Shown here in pieces: positions 2,356 to 9,170 of a DNA stretch of 10,407 nt. Position 1 is the first letter of the stretch, and the number at the start of each line of letters is the position of its first letter. The stretch lies in IMG/VR virus record IMGVR_UViG_2713896778_000036; one strand, written 5' to 3'. The position numbers and the translations under genes were made by a program. The stretch is from a virus. Lineage: Duplodnaviria; Heunggongvirae; Uroviricota; Caudoviricetes. Below the pieces are notes generated by a model. The model was not told where the DNA came from. It did not search any database and worked only from the letters and a program-made list of their open reading frames with translations.

Positions 2356-2778
2356 TTAATGAACAATGACAGAATCTTCGGAAGACCCGCCGCCGCTGAA
2401 ATGCGCTTTCCGGTAAACGGCCTGGACTGCATCATCATGCGCATCAATTGCCGTACTCAACGCTTCCTGCGCCGCCAGTAATGCACGGCGTTCCAGGGTA
2501 TCGAAGATGCAGAGTCGGTGACGCAGCTCGCGCGGAATAATTGCCAGAACCGCAGGGATCAGTTTCTGAATTTTTTCCCTTTGCGCTTTCGTTTCACCTT
2601 TCAACCAACGGTGATAGATATTCTGCTGATTGTTCCAGTCCTTGCCTGGTACCAGGGGCAATTCGCCGCCCCCCTGGCGCAGATATTCTTCAGTAATTGC
2701 GTTAGCGACCCACGCCTGCCCTTTTTCGGCTGCCAGGGCTAACAACACTGATTCGATGTGCTCATGCCTGATTTTCAT
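2356..2778 (-). CDS. ydaT: YdaT-family protein (reported as toxin and/or CII-like regulator in Rac/CP-933P-type prophages)
   Basis: 140-aa ORF MKIRHEHIESV...SEDSVIVH, same length as K-12 YdaT; AGGAG 7 nt upstream of ATG (complement of 2776-2778); start overlaps ydaS 3' end by 17 nt. Confidence 0.8.
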   Translation of the reverse strand: MKIRHEHIESVLLALAAEKGQAWVANAITEEYLRQGGGELPLVPGKDWNNQQNIYHRWLKGETKAQREKIQKLIPAVLAIIPRELRHRLCIFDTLERRALLAAQEALSTAIDAHDDAVQAVYRKAHFSGGGSSEDSVIVH

Positions 2779-3037
2779 GAATCAACTCCTGTGCATTTTG
2801 CGTGTTAGCCTTACATCCAACAGGTAAACCATCGGTCGGATTAGGGTAGATATCAGGCCGGAGTTCATGAGGTGTAACCTCGAAATTCGTAGCCTCTGCG
2901 ATACGCAATACCTTTTCAGGGCTTAACTGACTACGTCCAGTAGCAACGAGGCTAATCATTGATTGCGAACAACCAGCCAGCGCGGCCAAACAAGACTGTC
3001 GTACACGATTTTTTTTCAAATATTCATCTAATGTCAT
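2762..3037 (-). CDS. ydaS: YdaS-family Cro-like HTH protein
   Basis: HTH core QSCLAALAGCSQSMISLVATG and the family-typical HELRPDIYPNP. Track ORF starts at 3076 (104 aa) but that ATG has no SD; the ATG at 3035-3037 has AAGGTG 7 nt upstream and sits downstream of a predicted promoter, giving 91 aa (MTLDEYLKK...). Confidence 0.7.
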   Translation of the reverse strand: MTLDEYLKKNRVRQSCLAALAGCSQSMISLVATGRSQLSPEKVLRIAEATNFEVTPHELRPDIYPNPTDGLPVGCKANTQNAQELIHENQA

Positions 3038-3141
3038 AATGGTCACCTTAGTAATGCTCACAAAAATATTAACCATACTAATTTAAATGATCAATACCTA
3101 TATCAGTTTGAGATTATGAACTGTATTCATAAGATGGTGGT
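3038..3141. promoter_or_regulatory. Divergent promoter/operator region between ydaS (Cro-like) and racR-like repressor (PR/PRM analogue)
   Basis: Minus strand: TTGATC (complement of 3089-3094) - 17 nt - TAATAT (complement of 3066-3071) upstream of ydaS. Plus strand: TTGAGA (3108-3113) - 16 nt - TAAGAT (3130-3135) ending 6 nt before the racR ATG at 3142. Hexamers read by eye, no experimental support. Confidence 0.45.
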
Positions 3142-3606
3142 ATGAGAAGAAAACGCGAAGAAATCGCATCGCCGGAAGCTACGCAACGTCTGCGCGCAAT
3201 CTGGGATGCAAAAAAAAGAGAGCTCAAACTGACTCAGGAGCTTGCTGCCGAGCTAATGGGTTTTGAGGCGCAATCTGCGGTTAGCCATTATCTCAACGGA
3301 AAGGCTCCACTTAATACTGATGCGGCATTAAAATTCGCTGTATTACTAAGAGTTAAGCCTGAAGAGTTGAGGCCTGATTTAGCTGATCTGATGAATTACG
3401 TCCGTTCCTCAGGAACTTATGACGAAAGTTTCGAAGGCGAAGGTTGGCGGATGGTTAACAAGCAACAAGCTGATTTACTAGATCTTTTTGATATCCTTCC
3501 CGAATCAGAAAAAGCAAAACTAATCGAAAGACTTAAAGGTCAGAATGAACTCTACAAAGAAGCATTTGAAAATATGCTGGCAGCTCAAAAACGCATGAAG
3601 AAATAG
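3142..3606 (+). CDS. racR: CI-like prophage repressor with N-terminal XRE/lambda-CI-type HTH and no S24 peptidase domain (RacR position)
   Basis: 154-aa ORF; LTQELAAELMGFEAQSAVSHYLNGKAPLNTDAALKFAVLLRVKPEELRPDLA resembles the lambda CI N-terminal domain; C-terminal half is predicted helical and charged. Sits between ydaS and ydaG exactly as racR does in K-12 Rac; symbol is positional, sequence identity to K-12 RacR not verified. No usable SD before the ATG. Confidence 0.65.
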   Translation: MRRKREEIASPEATQRLRAIWDAKKRELKLTQELAAELMGFEAQSAVSHYLNGKAPLNTDAALKFAVLLRVKPEELRPDLADLMNYVRSSGTYDESFEGEGWRMVNKQQADLLDLFDILPESEKAKLIERLKGQNELYKEAFENMLAAQKRMKK

Positions 3607-3627
3607 CTCCCACCATCTCGTAACTAA

Positions 3628-3651
3628 ACCGCCATTTTTGGCGGTTTTTTT
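3628..3651 (+). terminator. Rho-independent terminator downstream of racR
   Basis: Perfect 7-bp stem ACCGCCA (3628-3634) / TGGCGGT (3639-3645), 4-nt loop TTTT, followed by a T run to 3651; 22 nt after the racR stop. Confidence 0.65.
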
Positions 3652-3746
3652 GTCCCCTCCGCCCGCCCCCGCCTTACTTTTTATCAAAAAAACACTAAAA
3701 ATTTCATTAGGATAGTACATTTTTATCAACGAAATGCATATTTGTG

Positions 3747-3775
3747 TTGATCATTAATATGAACATAACTAATAT
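3747..3775 (+). promoter_or_regulatory. Candidate sigma70 promoter for the ydaG-ydaF early-left operon (PL analogue)
   Basis: TTGATC (3747-3752) - 17 nt - TAATAT (3770-3775), the same -35 and -10 hexamers as the predicted ydaS promoter; about 65 nt upstream of the ydaG ATG. Confidence 0.35.
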
Positions 3776-3841
3776 TATTACAGAAGCAGCACGGCGCTGT
3801 AGGTTTTAGTTCCGCCACCCGGCGTTAAAGGGAGAGATAAA

Positions 3842-3976
3842 ATGGTGCATTACGAAGTAGTTCAGTATTTGATGGATTGTTGCGGTATCACTTACAGCCA
3901 AGCTGTACAGGCTCTACGCAGCAACGACTGGGATCTCTGGCAGGCAGAAGCCGCTATATGCAGCAACAAGATGTGA
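3842..3976 (+). CDS. ydaG: Small protein YdaG (44 aa), unknown function
   Basis: ATG 3842 with GGGAGAG about 8 nt upstream; translation MVHYEVVQYLMDCCGITYSQAVQALRSNDWDLWQAEAAICSNKM matches my recollection of K-12 YdaG in length and sequence. Not in the ORF track (under 60 aa). Confidence 0.6.
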   Translation: MVHYEVVQYLMDCCGITYSQAVQALRSNDWDLWQAEAAICSNKM

Positions 3977-3986
3977 GATTCGCAAA

Positions 3987-4139
3987 ATGCAAAAAATCGA
4001 CCTCGGCAACAACGAATCCCTAGTGTGTGGCGTGTTCCCCAACCAGGATGGAACGTTCACCGCCATGACGTATACCAAAAGCAAAACATTTAAAACTGAA
4101 ACAGGCGCACGTCGCTGGCTTGCCAAAAATACCAGCTAA
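3987..4139 (+). CDS. ydaF: Small protein YdaF (about 50 aa), unknown function
   Basis: ATG 3987, 10 nt after the ydaG stop; translation MQKIDLGNNESLVCGVFPNQDGTFTAMTYTKSKTFKTETGARRWLAKNTS; matches my recollection of K-12 YdaF (51 aa) apart from the C-terminus. Not in the ORF track. Confidence 0.55.
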   Translation: MQKIDLGNNESLVCGVFPNQDGTFTAMTYTKSKTFKTETGARRWLAKNTS

Positions 4140-4337
4140 ACCATTTATTGGATTAATTCAATATTCTTGCTGTAGGGGTATAGCCGAGGCCACCAAAGCC
4201 CGGAGGTGGTGAAATAAAACCGGGCACAACACGAAGGCGCATTTCCGGTATCCATAAAGAGTCGGTCTTGTCTGTCAAATTTAAATGGTGGGAGTGCGCC
4301 TCCGGTTGTGAATAACAACACTGCTGTGTGTAGTCTT

Positions 4338-4384
4338 GGCGGCATCAGTTTTTTCTTGAAGTTCGACTGATGTCCGCCCTTTTT
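4338..4384 (+). terminator. Candidate intrinsic terminator or attenuator hairpin upstream of kilR
   Basis: GGCGGCATCAG (4338-4348) pairs with CTGATGTCCGCC (4367-4378) with a 1-nt bulge, 18-nt loop, followed by CTTTTT (4379-4384). The long loop makes this a weak call. Confidence 0.3.
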
Positions 4385-4563
4385 AAAGTGAATTTTGTGA
4401 TGCGGTGAATGCGGCTAAGCGCACGCGGAACAGTTAAAAAGCTATTGTCCTTCGTAGCAGAGTTATGGGTGAAATATCCGGCGTTAATTGTTAACTGGTT
4501 AACGTCACCTGGAGGCACCAGGCACCGCATCGACAAAATTCATTTGTAAAAATGGAGATAATT

Positions 4564-5035: not shown

Positions 5036-7621
5036 ATGAGTACTGATAAAGAAAATTACGCTCTGTATTGCGACGCGAAAAATGATAAAACCAGAAAACG
5101 CCTCGGCATCAAAGGCGGCTTTTTCTGGACAGAGGCAAAAAAACTTTCTGTTGCGGTTTCACGCTGCATTGCTGCAATGGACGATGCCGGATTTGACGAA
5201 GAGGATTTTAAAAAACCCATCCGCGTCCATTTACCCGTTGTGAATGACCTTCCACCGGAAGGTGTGTTTGATACTGAATTCTGCAACCGATACGAAAAAG
5301 GCGGAGAAGATGGTATCACAATGATACTTATCGCGCCCTCTGTTCCGGACAAACCAGCCAGTACTGACAATACCAACGTCAACGGCGAAGACATGGCTAA
5401 GATTGAGGAGAATATGCTTCTTCCGGTTTCAGGTCAGATTCTGCCTGTTCGCTGGCTGGCGCAACACAACAGCGAAAAACCGCTCACGCACGTTTCACTG
5501 GACAAACTGCGCGCATTACATAACGCACAGGATGAAAAACTTCCCGCCGTTACCGCGCTGGCCATCTCAAATAAAGCAGTGCAACTCGAACCGCTGGAGA
5601 TTCGGGATTTGTACAAACTGGTGCGAGACACTGACAAAGTTTTCCCCGCCCCCGTAAATTCGGACCTGGGACTGATGACCTCTTTTATCGAAGCATACCT
5701 GGGCGCTGACTACACCGATCGCGGTCTGCTTACAAAAGAGTGGATGAAAGGAAATCGTGTTTCACGCATCAGCCGCACGCCATCCGGCGCTAACGCTGGC
5801 GGCGGCATTCTTACCGATCGCGGCGAAGGTTTTGTCCACGATGATGCGTCAGTGGCGCGTGACGTAGCCACTGGCGTACTGGCCCGTTCAATGGACGTGG
5901 ATATTTATAACCTTCATCCCGCGCACGCTAAACGCATTGAGGAAATTATCGCTGAAAATAAACCGCCATTTTCTGTGTTTTTCAGCAAATTCATCACCAT
6001 GCCGGGCCACAAGGATTACTCCCGCGCCATCGTGGTTGCGTCCGTGAAAGAAGCACCAATTGGTATAGAGGCTACTCCCCACCGTGTCACCGAATACCTG
6101 AATAAGGTGCTGACTGAAACCGATCATGCCACCCCTGATCCGGAAATCGTGGATATTGCCTGTGGTCGCTCCTCTGCCCCGATGCCGCAGCGTGTAACAA
6201 AAGAAGGAAAACAGGATGATGAAGAAAAACTGCAACCATCTTGCGCAATGGCAGATGAACAGGCAACGGCTGAAACAGTGGAACCGGATGCAANNNNNNN
6301 NNNNNNNNNNNNNNNNNNNNNNNNNNNNNNNNNNNNNNNNNNNNNNNNNNTACTGGCTGCCTCTCGCGGAGAATTTGTTGAAGGGATTAGCGACCCGAAT
6401 GATCCGAAATGGGTTAAGGGAATTGAAACCCGAGATTCTGTGAACCAGAACCAGCCCGAATCGGAACAAAACAACCAGAAAGCGGAACAAAACAGCCCAA
6501 ATGCACAGAAAAACGAGCCAGAAACGAAACAATCTGAACCAGTAGCGCAACAGGAACCGGAAAAAGTCTGTGCCGCCTGCGGTCAGAGCGGTGGCGGCAA
6601 CTGCCCTGATTGTGGCGCGGTGATGGGCGACACCACGTATCAGGAAACCTTTAATGAAGAAAATCTGGATGAATCTCAGGAAAAAGATCCGGAGGAAATG
6701 GAAGGCCCTGAACATCCGCACAATGAGAATGCTGGCAGCGATCCGCATCGCGATTGCAGTGACGAAACTGGCGAAGTCGCAGATCCCGTAATCGCAGGAG
6801 ACATAGAGCCTGGTATTTATTACGGAATTTCGAATGAGAATTACCACGCTGGTCCCGGTGTCAGTAAGTCTCAGCTCGACGACATTGCTGATACTCCGGC
6901 TCTGTATTTGTGGCGTAAAAATGCCCCAGTGGACACCACAAAGACAAAAACGCTCGATTTAGGAGCCGCTTTCCACTGCCGTGTACTTGAACCGGAAGAA
7001 TTCAGTAACCGCTTTATCATAGCACCTGAATTTAATCGCCGTACAAACGCCGGAAAAGAAGAAGAGAAAGCGTTTCTGATGGAATGCGCAAGCACAGGAA
7101 AAACGGTTATCACTGCGGAAGAAGGCCGGAAAATTGAACTCATGTATCAAAGCGTTATGGCTTTGCCGCTGGGGCAATGGCTTGTTGAAAGCGCCGGACA
7201 CGCTGAATCATCAATTTACTGGGAAGATCCTGAAACAGGAATTTTGTGTCGGTGCCGTCCGGACAAAATTATCCCTGAATTTCACTGGATCATGGACGTG
7301 AAAACTACGGCGGATATTCAACGATTCAAAACCGCTTATTACGACTACCGCTATCACGTTCAGGATGCATTCTACAGTGACGGTTATGAAGCACAGTTTG
7401 GAGTGCAGCCAACTTTCGTTTTTCTGGTTGCCAGCACAACTATTGAATGCGGACGTTATCCGGTTGAGATTTTCATGATGGGCGAAGAAGCAAAACTGGC
7501 AGGCCAGCAGGAATATCACCGCAATCTGCGGACCCTGGCTGACTGCCTAAATACCGATGAATGGCCAGCTATTAAGACGTTATCACTGCCCCGCTGGGCT
7601 AAGGAGTATGCAAATGATTAA
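5036..7621 (+). CDS. recE: Exodeoxyribonuclease VIII (RecE), 5'-3' dsDNA exonuclease of the RecET recombination system; interrupted by an N run
   Basis: 861-codon ORF; GAGG 7 nt upstream of ATG. C-terminal PD-(D/E)XK-type nuclease region ([24 protein letters not shown]...[23 protein letters not shown]...) and central blocks ([33 protein letters not shown]) match RecE from memory. N-terminal ~100 aa differs from my recollection of K-12 RecE. Stop overlaps the recT start. Confidence 0.92.
6294..6350. other. Run of 57 N (assembly gap or masked bases) inside recE
   Basis: Directly visible: n at 6294-6350. Length is a multiple of 3 and the recE frame is identical on both sides (20 X codons in the translation). 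Confidence 1.
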
Positions 7622-8479: not shown

Positions 8480-8674
8480 ATGAGATATGACAATGTTAAA
8501 CCATGTCCATTTTGTGGTTGTCCATCAGTAACGGTGAAAGCCATTTCAGGATATTACCGAGCGAAGTGTAACGGATGCGAATCCCGAACCGGTTATGGTG
8601 GAAGTGAAAAAGAAGCACTCGAAAGATGGAATAAACGAACCACTGGAAATAATAATGGAGGTGTTCATGTATAA
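8480..8674 (+). CDS. ralR: RalR/Lar restriction-alleviation protein, reported as the DNase toxin of the RalR/RalA type I toxin-antitoxin pair
   Basis: 64-aa reading MRYDNVKPCPFCGCPSVTVKAISGYYRAKCNGCESRTGYGGSEKEALERWNKRTTGNNNGGVHV matches K-12 RalR from memory; two CxxC-type pairs (CPFCGC, CNGC). In-frame alternative starts at 8441 and 8468 lack SD. Confidence 0.8.
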   Translation: MRYDNVKPCPFCGCPSVTVKAISGYYRAKCNGCESRTGYGGSEKEALERWNKRTTGNNNGGVHV

Positions 8675-8876
8675 AATTACCGCCACTATTGAAAAGGAAG
8701 GTGGCACTCCTACTAACTGGACAAGATATTCAAAATCTAAACTAACGAAATCAGAATGCGAAAAAATGCTCTCAGGTAAAAAAGAAGCAGGCGTTTCCAG
8801 AGAGCAGAAAGTAAAACTGATAAATTTTAATTGCGAGAAACTTCAGTCCTCGAGAATTGCATTGTATTCAAATTAA
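8667..8876 (+). CDS. ydaC: YdaC-family small protein (DUF1187-like), unknown function
   Basis: 69-aa reading MYKITATIEKEGGTPTNWTRYSKSKLTKSECEKMLSGKKEAGVSREQKVKLINFNCEKLQSSRIALYSN; GGAGG (8657-8661) 5 nt upstream of ATG 8667; overlaps the ralR 3' end by 8 nt. Matches K-12 YdaC from memory. Confidence 0.7.
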   Translation: MYKITATIEKEGGTPTNWTRYSKSKLTKSECEKMLSGKKEAGVSREQKVKLINFNCEKLQSSRIALYSN

Positions 8877-8887
8877 AACTTCATAGC

Positions 8888-8903
8888 TGATTATTAATAA
8901 TCA
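8888..8903. repeat. Perfect 16-bp palindrome TGATTATTAATAATCA in the ydaC-xis intergenic region
   Basis: Read directly: 8888-8903 is its own reverse complement; lies about 50 nt upstream of the xis start codon. Confidence 0.5.
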
Positions 8904-8954
8904 ACATCGGGCGTCAATTTCAGTCTAACATTGGCGCCTGCCAGAGGTGATGCG

Positions 8955-9170
8955 ATGGCACAAGTAATCTTTAATGAAGAGTGGATGGTTGAATACGGCC
9001 TGATGCTTCGCACTGGTCTGGGGGCCAGACAAATTGAAGCATACCGCCAGAACTGTTGGGTGGAGGGCTTCCACTTCAAACGAGTATCTCCTTTAGGTAA
9101 GCCAGACAGCAAACGAGGGATTATCTGGTACAACTATCCAAAGATAAATCAGTTTATCAAAGACTCATGA
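8955..9170 (+). CDS. xisR: Excisionase (Xis), Rac XisR/YdaQ type
   Basis: 71-aa reading [71 protein letters not shown] from ATG 8955 with AGAGGTG 5 nt upstream; matches K-12 YdaQ/XisR from memory. Track ORF starts at an upstream TTG (8931). Stop lies 1 nt before the int ATG. Confidence 0.85.

Follow-up and report, generated by a model that had tools for sequence, protein, structure and literature searches.

The DNA described here comes from a 10,407-nucleotide stretch (the window) whose gene content identifies it as part of the Rac prophage of STEC Escherichia coli. Genes follow one another in the Rac order, with ttcA adjoining and with ydaU/ydaV, kilR, recET, ralR, xisR, and intR in the neighborhood. 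The region of interest holds three genes. Two are on the minus strand: ydaT (2356-2778), which encodes a 140-amino-acid (aa) putative CII-analogue transcription factor, and a gene for a 91-aa Cro-like helix-turn-helix (HTH) protein (2762-3037) that is a distant member of the YdaS family. The third, on the plus strand, encodes a repressor of 154 aa (3142-3606; RefSeq WP_001253182.1). These positions are those given in a preliminary description of this DNA, and the 17-nucleotide (nt) overlap reported there is exact, as the stop codon (TGA) of the Cro-like gene is at 2762-2764 and the ydaT start codon (ATG) is at 2776-2778. A mechanical list of open reading frames (ORFs) starts the Cro-like gene at 3076 (104 aa), but we prefer the ATG at 3037, which is backed by RefSeq, by homologues, and by a Shine-Dalgarno sequence (AAGGTGA). 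The ORFs are not chance occurrences, because all three proteins have significant family matches (repressor, HTH_3, E = 4e-8; Cro-like protein, YdaS_toxin [PF15943], 40.2 bits against a gathering score of 30; YdaT, YdaT_toxin [PF06254], 42 bits against 21). At least 22 complete E. coli genomes, O121, O157:H7, and O45 genomes among them, carry this 1,251-bp stretch at 100% identity and have it annotated as three coding sequences. In one strain, RM8352, IS3-family insertions break up the prophage.

On either side of the region, identity to the Rac prophage of E. coli K-12 is more than 95%; the similarity is lost near 2785 and again near 3806. The intervening segment (about 2786-3806, ~1 kb; G+C content of 41%, compared with 48 to 49% in the flanks) contains the Cro-like gene, the divergent control region (the analogue of lambda OR), the repressor gene, a terminator, and the OL/PL region. 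Alignment thus indicates that an immunity cassette has replaced the one resident in K-12 Rac, with one junction falling inside the YdaT-box at the start of ydaT.

A hybrid repressor and its partners

The repressor consists of a lambda-CI-type HTH domain (residues ~11 to 89), a flexible linker (~90 to 106), and a DicA-type C-terminal helical hairpin (107 to 153). Residues 12 to 82 match the N-terminal domain of lambda CI (PDB 3kz3 and 1lmb; phmmer E = 5.5e-9), and the best Foldseek matches of the predicted structure are all to that domain (TM score of 0.78 on the target, root mean square deviation of 2.2 Å, 38% identity). The CI-like HTH proposed in the preliminary description is therefore genuine. 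In the phmmer alignment, the protein retains the recognition-helix residues Q44 and S45 and acidic residues aligned with E34 and D38 of lambda. The Foldseek search with the whole model is informative for the N-terminal domain only; whole-length matches to Stl and to the SPC32H Rep-Ant complex were set aside (E of about 0.03 to 0.05, deviations above 13 Å).

The C-terminal part has a different affinity. Residues 105 to 154 align with DicA, the repressor of the Qin prophage (BLASTP, 30% identity over 50 aa, E = 9e-7), and positions 85 to 134 of the NCBIfam DicA model match the same part of the protein (E = 7e-9). BLASTP aligned these 50 residues alone and gave no alignment between the N-terminal domains of the two proteins, and the whole repressor scores 35.6 bits on the DicA model, below the curated cutoff of 101. 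The AlphaFold2 model is all-helical beyond residue 107. A Pfam search of the repressor gave no match to Peptidase_S24 (PF00717), so that the absence of a LexA-type autocleavage domain, as previously noted, holds; S24 is, however, present in P0034 and P0035, two relatives that share this N-terminal domain. By these comparisons, the repressor is a hybrid of a lambda CI DNA-binding domain and DicA C-terminal helices, and one N-terminal domain occurs with either an S24 domain or DicA-type helices.

The label "racR-like", by contrast, has to be abandoned. BLASTP between K-12 RacR and the 154-aa repressor detects no similarity (E = 4.5), and the NCBIfam RacR equivalog model (NF049929), which scores 244.6 bits on K-12 RacR, does not match the protein at all. 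Sequence comparison thus makes it a positional analogue of RacR and not a homologue. Of the other two proteins, YdaT is close to its K-12 counterpart and the Cro-like protein only distantly related. The earlier name "Cro-like ydaS" is sound as a family assignment, but the protein is a remote relative of K-12 YdaS (42% identity over 50 aa). Its best PDB matches are 8c7k and 8co2, whose chains are named "antirepressor protein Cro" (E = 4e-7), and in 14 of 21 genome loci its gene is found along with that of a member of the repressor family. DicC was considered as a relative of the Cro-like protein and rejected, since the two have no similarity; the "dicC" label used in phage Rac-SA53, which has a repressor homologue (69.5% identity) annotated as dicA, is for this reason positional.

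YdaT is 96% identical and YdaU 99% identical to their K-12 counterparts. YdaT also matches phrog_163 (E = 2e-36), a family described as CII-like (PMC9986795, PMC11879457), which together with its orthology to K-12 YdaT upholds the CII-like role assigned to it previously. Aligned with the K-12 protein, it keeps H56, R57, and W58, which bind DNA, and L107 and A110 of the tetramerization helix (PMC11879457). It is distant from the CP-933P YdaT of known structure (8bt1; phmmer E = 2e-5), and the K-12 and CP-933P proteins are themselves only 30% identical (Wons et al., PMC11879457).

Putative promoters, candidate operators, and the YdaT-box

The divergent control region between the Cro-like and repressor genes is 104 bp long (3038-3141). 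The RacR operator repeats GCCTAA/TTAGGC, of which the K-12 intergenic region has four copies, are absent from 2780-3850 (0 copies), and for that reason we expect the cassette to be heteroimmune to K-12 Rac. Two putative promoters can be placed in the control region from consensus hexamers. The PR-like candidate (minus strand, 3066-3094; -35 TTGATC at 3094-3089, 17-nt spacer, -10 TAATAT at 3071-3066) faces the Cro-like gene, ydaT, ydaU, and ydaV, and TAATAT and TTGAYM are conserved at its position in related loci. The PRM-like candidate for the repressor gene (plus strand, 3108-3135) consists of TTGAGA, a 16-nt spacer, and TAAGAT; only 6 nt separate its -10 element from the ATG, which predicts a leaderless transcript. 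[quoted passage not shown] Leaderless repressor mRNAs are known from paaR2 of CP-933P (PMC8630535) and likewise from lambda cI.

Beyond the repressor gene, a PL-like candidate (plus strand, 3747-3775; TTGATC, 17 nt, TAATAT) would serve ydaG, ydaF, kilR, recE, and recT. Its hexamers are identical to those of the PR-like promoter; both match the consensus at 8 of 12 positions, below the threshold of the promoter scan. The two promoters lie within a 42-nt inverted repeat that flanks the repressor gene (3062-3103 and 3738-3779, 71% complementary). An intrinsic terminator-like hairpin followed by a T-run (plus strand, 3626-3657) is found directly 3' of the repressor gene. It has a 9-bp stem with 5 G-C pairs, has equivalents after the repressor gene in L003 to L005, and occupies the position of the terminator that ends the lambda immunity operon.

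Candidate operators were recognized by comparing related loci and by scanning for dyads; a seed-6 repeat search of the intergenic region found nothing. The strongest, at the OR3 position between the PRM-like -35 and -10 elements, is the 17-bp TATGAACtgtATTCATA (3115-3131), the core of a perfect 7-5-7 palindrome (3114-3132) whose arms are conserved and whose spacer varies in L003 and L004. Its half-site, TATGAAC, agrees with the lambda consensus half-site TATCACC at 5 of 7 positions. A weaker match at the OR1 position, TATTAACcatACTAATT (3067-3083), lies inside the PR-like spacer and -10 element and may be a second operator. No convincing 17-mer was found between 3084 and 3114, where OR2 would be expected. 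On the OL side, TATGAACataACTAATA (3758-3774) lies in the PL-like spacer, and promoter and candidate operator are conserved together in L003 and L004; a further, weak candidate, TATCAACgaaATGCATA (3724-3740), has 3 mismatches to the palindrome and an equivalent in L003. Five of the nine half-site matches in the window lie within 137 nt of OR and OL, a count to be read in the knowledge that the motif was defined post hoc from the sequences on which it was scored.

The YdaT-box, TTGATTcatgaaAATCAG (2768-2785, minus strand), covers the start codon of ydaT together with the 3' end of the Cro-like gene; it has one mismatch to TTGATT-N6-AATCAA. A box is present at this junction in 10 of the 10 loci (among L003 to L023 and L025) that encode a full-length YdaT-family protein. 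The corresponding K-12 box, ATGATTCATGAAAATCAA, has been footprinted and activates the reverse promoter PracR4 (PMC11879457). No YdaT-box-like sites occur within 3 mismatches in the control region, where K-12 has three weak YdaT operators. Far from the switch, 8870-8920 includes a candidate YdaT site at xis-int. A YdaT-dependent (PRE-like) promoter could not be placed with confidence; PracR4 of K-12 lies inside ydaS, in the stretch that is replaced in the window. The sole plus-strand consensus candidate inside the Cro-like gene (TTTTCA-16-CATAAT, 3013-3040) is about 230 bp from the YdaT-box.

A probable lambdoid switch and its competing explanations

We consider it probable that the region is the immunity (lysis/lysogeny) switch of the Rac lambdoid prophage as it occurs in STEC, with a cassette unlike that of K-12 Rac. 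The layout visible in the sequence is that of a lambdoid immunity region, with divergent PR- and PRM-like promoters that share candidate operators, a second candidate operator set (OL/PL) past the repressor gene, and the Cro and CII analogues followed by replication genes. Gene order and the putative promoters and operators thus bear out the CI/Cro/CII-like switch suggested in the preliminary description. The switch appears to be an ordinary, hitherto uncharacterized variant of a known lambda-like kind, with a swapped-in repressor/Cro cassette.

From this arrangement we infer the following direction of regulation. The repressor would bind 17-bp operators of the form TAT(G/T)AAY-N3-RTT(A/C)ATA that flank its gene, contacting DNA through the lambda-CI-type HTH and oligomerizing through the DicA-type helical hairpin. 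On the OR side it would silence the PR-like promoter and keep the Cro-like gene, ydaT, ydaU, and ydaV off, and on the OL side the PL-like promoter, and with it ydaG, ydaF, kilR, recE, and recT. It would regulate its own synthesis from the PRM-like promoter through the leaderless mRNA, and the Cro-like protein would vie for the same operators, creating a bistable switch. YdaT, as the CII analogue, would act on the box over its own start to boost leftward (antisense) transcription toward the repressor gene. Parts of this circuit may be vestigial, as Rac is generally cryptic. Given the near identity of YdaT to the K-12 protein, derepression would presumably be lethal. The preliminary description singled out this module as the most likely conditionally lethal unit in the window, a view that draws on K-12 data only.

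RecA-stimulated self-cleavage is impossible because the repressor is without an S24 domain, and the earlier statement that induction cannot follow the lambda RecA-cleavage route is correct to that extent. Induction, like that governed by DicA, the Gifsy repressors, and PaaR2, is probably RecA independent. Derepression may come about by stochastic or stress-driven switching or through an antirepressor, as with DicA (Rem) and the Gifsy repressors. This last route admits indirect SOS induction, in which a Rem- or GfoA-type antirepressor from this or a coresident STEC prophage, possibly under LexA control, frees the repressor from DNA. We think this somewhat unlikely, and it would refine the induction step of the lambdoid switch rather than replace the switch. 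It draws on the homology of the C-terminal 50 residues to DicA, on the inactivation of DicA by Qin Rem, and on the resemblance of DicA to Gifsy repressors, which are under LexA-regulated antirepressors (PMC10448788). The same prophage of RM8352 retains a truncated remnant of rem (26 aa, 73% identity) at L001:560-637, about 6 kb beyond the left end of the window, but this copy is a pseudogene, and no intact Rem homologue is found in the window. Nor was a LexA box found in the window: no 20-mer matches the consensus within 3 mismatches, and CTGT-N8-ACAG with one mismatch occurs at chance level, with no instance near the module. Moreover, only the C-terminal domain of DicA is shared, and Rem may contact either DicA domain; DicA is also derepressed without Rem or RecA (PMC10448788). 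A specific form of the idea, that the C-terminal module docks antirepressors so that Rem- or GfoA-like proteins of coresident prophages, including Stx phages, derepress this Rac variant in trans, seems to us unlikely. If true, it would couple expression of KilR, YdaT, and RecET from Rac to the induction of other prophages, although the rem gene of Rac is dead.

RacR-YdaS-YdaT was first described in K-12 as a toxin/repressor module (PMC5700373, PMC5700377), and the genes studied here could by the same token form an atypical toxin-antitoxin addiction module, with the YdaS-like protein and YdaT acting solely as host-killing toxins silenced by the 154-aa protein. The Pfam names YdaS_toxin and YdaT_toxin invite this explanation, K-12 racR is essential and expression of ydaS/ydaT is toxic (PMC5700373, PMC5700377), K-12 YdaT, to which the protein studied here is nearly identical, causes filamentation and death (PMC11879457), and the immunity region of CP-933P has been reported as addictive (PMC8630535). 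We nevertheless judge it improbable. The genes occupy the lambdoid places of Cro and CII, upstream of replication genes; YdaT activates repressor synthesis in a sequence-specific manner (PMC11879457); CP-933P YdaT was not toxic (PMC8630535); and Jobling has argued that being toxic when expressed ectopically does not qualify these proteins as toxins (PMC5917428). The toxicity of YdaS cannot be transferred to the Cro-like protein, given how remote the latter is from K-12 YdaS. The co-transcription that marks type II toxin-antitoxin modules is not found, as the repressor gene is divergent from the supposed toxin genes, and this arrangement implies no neutralization by protein-protein contact.

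That the locus is a decaying remnant, with intact repressor and Cro-like ORFs in a circuit that has ceased to switch and does not affect the host, is very improbable: Rac is cryptic, its rem is truncated, and IS3-family insertions have entered it in RM8352, but none of the three ORFs is disrupted, their sequences are 100% identical in many STEC lineages, the promoter and operator features are common to Salmonella and E. albertii relatives, and the K-12 counterpart is active and essential (PMC5700373).

Relation to known switches and modular exchange

The lambdoid switch proposed here overlaps partially with several characterized systems. It shares with K-12 Rac (Krishnamurthi 2017; Bindal 2017; Wons 2025) the prophage family, the integration site by ttcA, the gene order, the YdaT-box over the ydaT start, and a repressor that is divergent from a Cro-like gene and ydaT and lacks S24. 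It differs in having a repressor unrelated to RacR, in lacking RacR operators and the PracR4 sequence of K-12 ydaS, and in the 17-nt overlap before ydaT, where K-12 has a 22-nt gap. With lambda it has in common a homologous repressor N-terminal domain (about 38 to 42% identity) with Q44/S45 and acidic residues at the positive-control patch positions (E34, D38), candidate 17-bp operators with similar half-sites, OR and OL flanking the repressor gene, a PRM-like promoter with a predicted leaderless mRNA, and a terminator followed by a PL-like promoter. In contrast to lambda, the repressor has no S24 C-terminal domain and so no RecA-mediated cleavage, the place of CII is taken by YdaT, a functional analogue from another protein family, the Cro-like protein is of the HTH_XRE/YdaS type and not lambda Cro, and there is no rexAB.

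The repressor resembles those of DicA-DicC (Qin) and GfoR/GftR (Gifsy) in being short (about 135 to 155 aa) and without an Ala-Gly cleavage site and S24. Like that of Qin, the PL-like operon opens with a DUF1391 gene and holds a cell division inhibitor (kilR in the window, dicB in Qin); here, however, the Cro-like protein is unlike DicC, and the prophage has no intact Rem. The paaR2-(paaA2-parE2)/ydaS-ydaT locus of CP-933P (Jurenas 2021; Prolic-Kalinsek 2023) likewise combines a short peptidase-less repressor (PaaR2 being likened by description, not sequence) with a Cro-like YdaS and a CII-like YdaT that recognizes TTGATT-N6-AATCAA. Its PR/PRM/PL/PRE logic, leaderless repressor mRNA, and bistable switch are predicted for the window from sequence; a toxin-antitoxin pair behind the repressor gene, as in CP-933P, is absent.

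It follows that "RacR" cannot be assigned from position alone. K-12 data concerning the operators of RacR and cross-talk with restriction-modification C proteins are not transferable, because the window-type cassette differs and is presumably heteroimmune; YdaT-dependent effects observed in K-12 probably do carry over. Modular exchange is apparent at two levels, the immunity cassette, with its junction in the YdaT-box regulatory site, and the repressor domains, which is unsurprising for lambdoid phages. A few strains were reported to have ydaT but no racR, with the intergenic region "lost" (Krishnamurthi et al. 2017). The cassette described here offers an explanation for such strains, namely, that the intergenic region was replaced, not lost. 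Among 5,426 complete E. coli genomes, 1,085 have the K-12 type of cassette and 75 (~1.4%) have the window type, the latter being, in the best matches listed, mainly STEC O121, O157:H7, and O45.

Exchange of the Rac immunity cassette

The switch studied here is an uncharacterised case of a well-known type of system, and what is modestly new in it comes down to a lambda CI/DicA hybrid repressor, the position of one cassette junction within the YdaT-box, and another box-like site upstream of xisR. The three genes of the preliminary description are borne out: a repressor gene (154 aa, 3142-3606, + strand), a Cro-sized gene (91 aa, end 2762, start 3037, - strand) and ydaT (140 aa, 2356-2778, - strand), all three visible in the raw sequence and its ORF list. 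The mechanical ORF list begins the Cro-like gene at 3076 (104 aa); we place the real start at 3037 because RefSeq annotates it there in an identical genome, because the first residue then aligns with the first residue of PDB chains 8c7k and 8co2, and because of the Shine-Dalgarno sequence AAGGTGA. The stop codon of this gene (TGA, 2762-2764) and the ATG of ydaT (2776-2778) give the 17-nt overlap that had been described.

We conclude that a ~1-kb cassette has replaced its K-12 counterpart, as DNA identity with K-12 exceeds 95% on both flanks and is absent between them, with breaks at ~2785 and ~3806. The cassette comprises the Cro-like gene, the divergent control region, the repressor gene, the terminator and the downstream promoter region, and its G+C content is 41% (48-49% in the flanks). 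YdaT and YdaU are 96% and 99% identical to their K-12 counterparts. The repressor shows no significant BLASTP similarity to K-12 RacR (E 4.5), and the NCBIfam RacR equivalog model, which gives K-12 RacR 245 bits, does not match it, so that the label "racR-like" is wrong. The Cro-like protein passes the Pfam YdaS threshold (40.2 bits against 30), but as a remote relative, with 42% identity to K-12 YdaS over 50 residues. The operator repeats of RacR, GCCTAA/TTAGGC (PMC5700373), do not occur in the cassette, whereas the K-12 intergenic region has four, from which we infer that the STEC-type and K-12 forms of Rac would be hetero-immune. Krishnamurthi et al. noted a few strains with ydaT and no racR, in which the intergenic region was "lost" (PMC5700373); the window offers the explanation that it was replaced.

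At least 22 complete E. coli genomes, including those of O121, O157:H7 and O45:H2 isolates of bovine, food and patient origin, carry the 1,251-bp stretch at 100% identity. The prophage that contains it in strain RM8352 adjoins ttcA and has the order ydaV, ydaU, ydaT, "transcriptional regulator," "HTH protein," ydaF, kilR, ydaE, recE, recT, ralR, rcbA, xisR, intR, which is that of K-12 Rac in reversed orientation. Among 5,426 complete E. coli genomes, 1,085 carry the K-12-type racR-ydaS, 75 the full module of the window and 1,644 a match to part of it. K-12 Rac has sieB and the kilS sRNA between ydaF and kilR; the window lacks sieB at that place (4140-4550), the corresponding ~420 bp of RM8352 carry no RefSeq annotation, and similarity to K-12 ends near 4120. 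Inside recE, 57 consecutive Ns (6294-6350) seem to stand for a gap in the assembly or a masked segment and to fall short of the true sequence by ~84 nt, the ORF being 861 aa against 889 aa in the identical RefSeq genome.

Repressor architecture and induction

Residues 12-82 of the repressor match the lambda CI N-terminal domain (PDB 3kz3 and 1lmb; E 5.5e-9 to 6e-8). In alignment with lambda CI, Q44 and S45 are retained at the start of the recognition helix, and E33/E37 align with lambda E34/D38, which form the positive-control patch touching sigma-70. The C-terminal part (105-154) is similar to the final 50 residues of DicA, the Qin prophage repressor (BLASTP, 30% identity, E 9e-7); the NCBIfam DicA model gives E 7e-9, yet falls far under its whole-protein cut-off. 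An AlphaFold2 model built from 21 homologues (mean pLDDT 78.6) is all-helical, with a helix-turn-helix domain, a low-confidence linker (90-106) and a helical hairpin (107-118 and 121-153); its best Foldseek matches are lambda CI N-terminal domains (rmsd 2.2 Å, 38% identity). The family consists of ~150-aa proteins of Enterobacterales prophages, including those of Salmonella, Hafnia, Enterobacter, Yersinia and Dickeya. The same N-terminal domain, at 53-64% identity, recurs in two relatives, P0034 and P0035, and in CI proteins encoded by many Stx2a phages. Both of these relatives have an S24 domain, and one Stx2a-phage CI gene is annotated as LexA family; the domain boundary is thus a swap point. 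Rac-SA53 is the sole phage record with a full-length homologue (69.5% identity), annotated dicA beside "dicC" and ydaT.

RecA-stimulated cleavage is excluded, as had been argued from sequence, because the repressor lacks an S24 domain (no Peptidase_S24 in the Pfam search, no S24 fold among the Foldseek matches). DicA, whose tail is homologous to that of this repressor, is derepressed via the antirepressor Rem, spontaneously via DicC, and under urea or heat, all independently of RecA (PMC10448788). Mitomycin C also leaves the CP-933P repressor PaaR2 unaffected (PMC8630535). A search of the window for rem homologues gave none, and LexA boxes did not exceed chance; a truncated remnant of rem, the Qin antirepressor gene (26 aa, 73% identity, a partial pseudogene near hokD), lies ~6 kb beyond the left end of the window in the same Rac prophage of RM8352 (L001:560-637). 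Any induction route for this switch is therefore inferential.

Predicted promoters, operators and YdaT sites

The reading as a CI/Cro/CII-like switch holds, and the most likely working model would be a lambda-type bistable switch with YdaT as establishment activator. The Cro-like protein matches phrog_35, and its best solved relatives are two chains titled "antirepressor protein Cro" (8c7k, 8co2); it is not similar to DicC. For YdaT the matches are phrog_163, "CII-like transcriptional activator" (E 2e-36), and two solved structures of its family, 3c4r and 8bt1; the protein retains H56, R57, W58, L107 and A110, which Wons et al. found to be required for DNA binding and tetramerisation (PMC11879457).

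A 42-nt inverted repeat (71% complementary) pairs the control region (3062-3103) with a site beyond the terminator-like hairpin downstream of the repressor gene (3738-3779). Each arm has a predicted promoter with the same hexamers (TTGATC-17 nt-TAATAT), PR-like and facing the Cro-like gene in one, PL-like and facing ydaG, ydaF and kilR in the other; both are conserved in a Salmonella locus (L003) and a metagenome-assembled Proteobacteria locus (L004). Between the -35 and -10 of the predicted PRM-like repressor promoter (TTGAGA-16 nt-TAAGAT, + strand) lies a candidate operator, the perfect 7-5-7 palindrome TTATGAActgtaTTCATAA (3114-3132), whose arms are conserved and spacer variable in relatives. 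The half-site of its 17-bp core, TATGAAC, resembles the lambda half-site TATCACC. Weaker candidate copies occupy the PR-like (3067-3083) and PL-like (3758-3774) spacers; no operator was found at the OR2 position of the control region. Of nine half-site matches across the window, five lie in the 137 nt made up by these OR and OL sites; the count is indicative only, as the motif was drawn from the sequences on which it is scored. The PRM-like -10 ends 6 nt before the repressor ATG, and a -10-like hexamer 6-9 nt before the start codon (20 of 24 sequences, the window and 23 related loci) points to a leaderless repressor mRNA, like those of lambda cI and paaR2 of CP-933P (PMC8630535).

In Proteus and Providencia (L017-L020, ~3900-4000), control regions of distant repressor relatives have three very clear 15-17-bp dyad operators (e.g., ATTAGCAATGCTAAT, CAATAGCAATGCTATTG and ATTAGCAATACAAAT), a cleaner layout than that of the window, which would make these loci a good system for defining the operator code of the family. 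The first gene of the PL-like operon (3842-3976) encodes a YdaG-like protein of 44 aa matching Pfam UBA_4, a UBA-like domain (E 3e-5, 24.1 bits against a threshold of 21.8).

In K-12 the YdaT footprint covers ATGATTCATGAAAATCAA, at the start codon of ydaT itself, and from this site YdaT activates a reverse promoter and raises racR expression, comparable to lambda CII at PRE (PMC11879457). The window has TTGATTCATGAAAATCAG (2768-2785), and in the alignment with K-12 the left cassette junction falls inside this box. Among the related loci (L003-L023 and L025), all 10 with a full-length YdaT-family protein have the box, with at most two mismatches, where the Cro-like gene meets ydaT; loci without such a protein lack it at that position. 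A second box-like palindrome, CTGATTATTAATAATCAA (8887-8904), has one mismatch to TTGATT-N6-AATCAA, lies ~50-70 bp upstream of the xisR start (ATG at 8955) and is kept in K-12 Rac (L002:2504-2521); it could be a CII/PI-like site for YdaT control of xis-int. Wons et al. (2025) reported just two YdaT sites in Rac and did not mention xisR (PMC11879457).

Possible toxicity of the module

The preliminary description also saw the module as the most likely conditionally lethal (toxin-like) unit of the window. Derepressed ydaS/ydaT is lethal in K-12 (PMC5700373, PMC5700377) and K-12 YdaT by itself causes filamentation (PMC11879457); with YdaT 96% identical, such effects on derepression are plausible in this prophage. 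Weighing against a toxin unit, the Cro-like protein is distinct from K-12 YdaS, Jobling regards these proteins as regulators rather than toxins (PMC5917428), and CP-933P YdaT is non-toxic (PMC8630535). We favour the regulatory switch, whose repressor probably keeps kilR repressed as well, via the PL-like promoter; in K-12, however, deletion of racR through ydaU with kilR left in place is viable (PMC5700373). Nor is ydaS/ydaT the sole toxin-like unit of the window, which also carries the established type I toxin-antitoxin pair RalA/RalR: the RalA antitoxin sRNA (8673-8851, - strand; Rfam RF02694, 225 bits) is antisense to rcbA and ralR and adjoins the ralR toxin gene (8480-8674, + strand).
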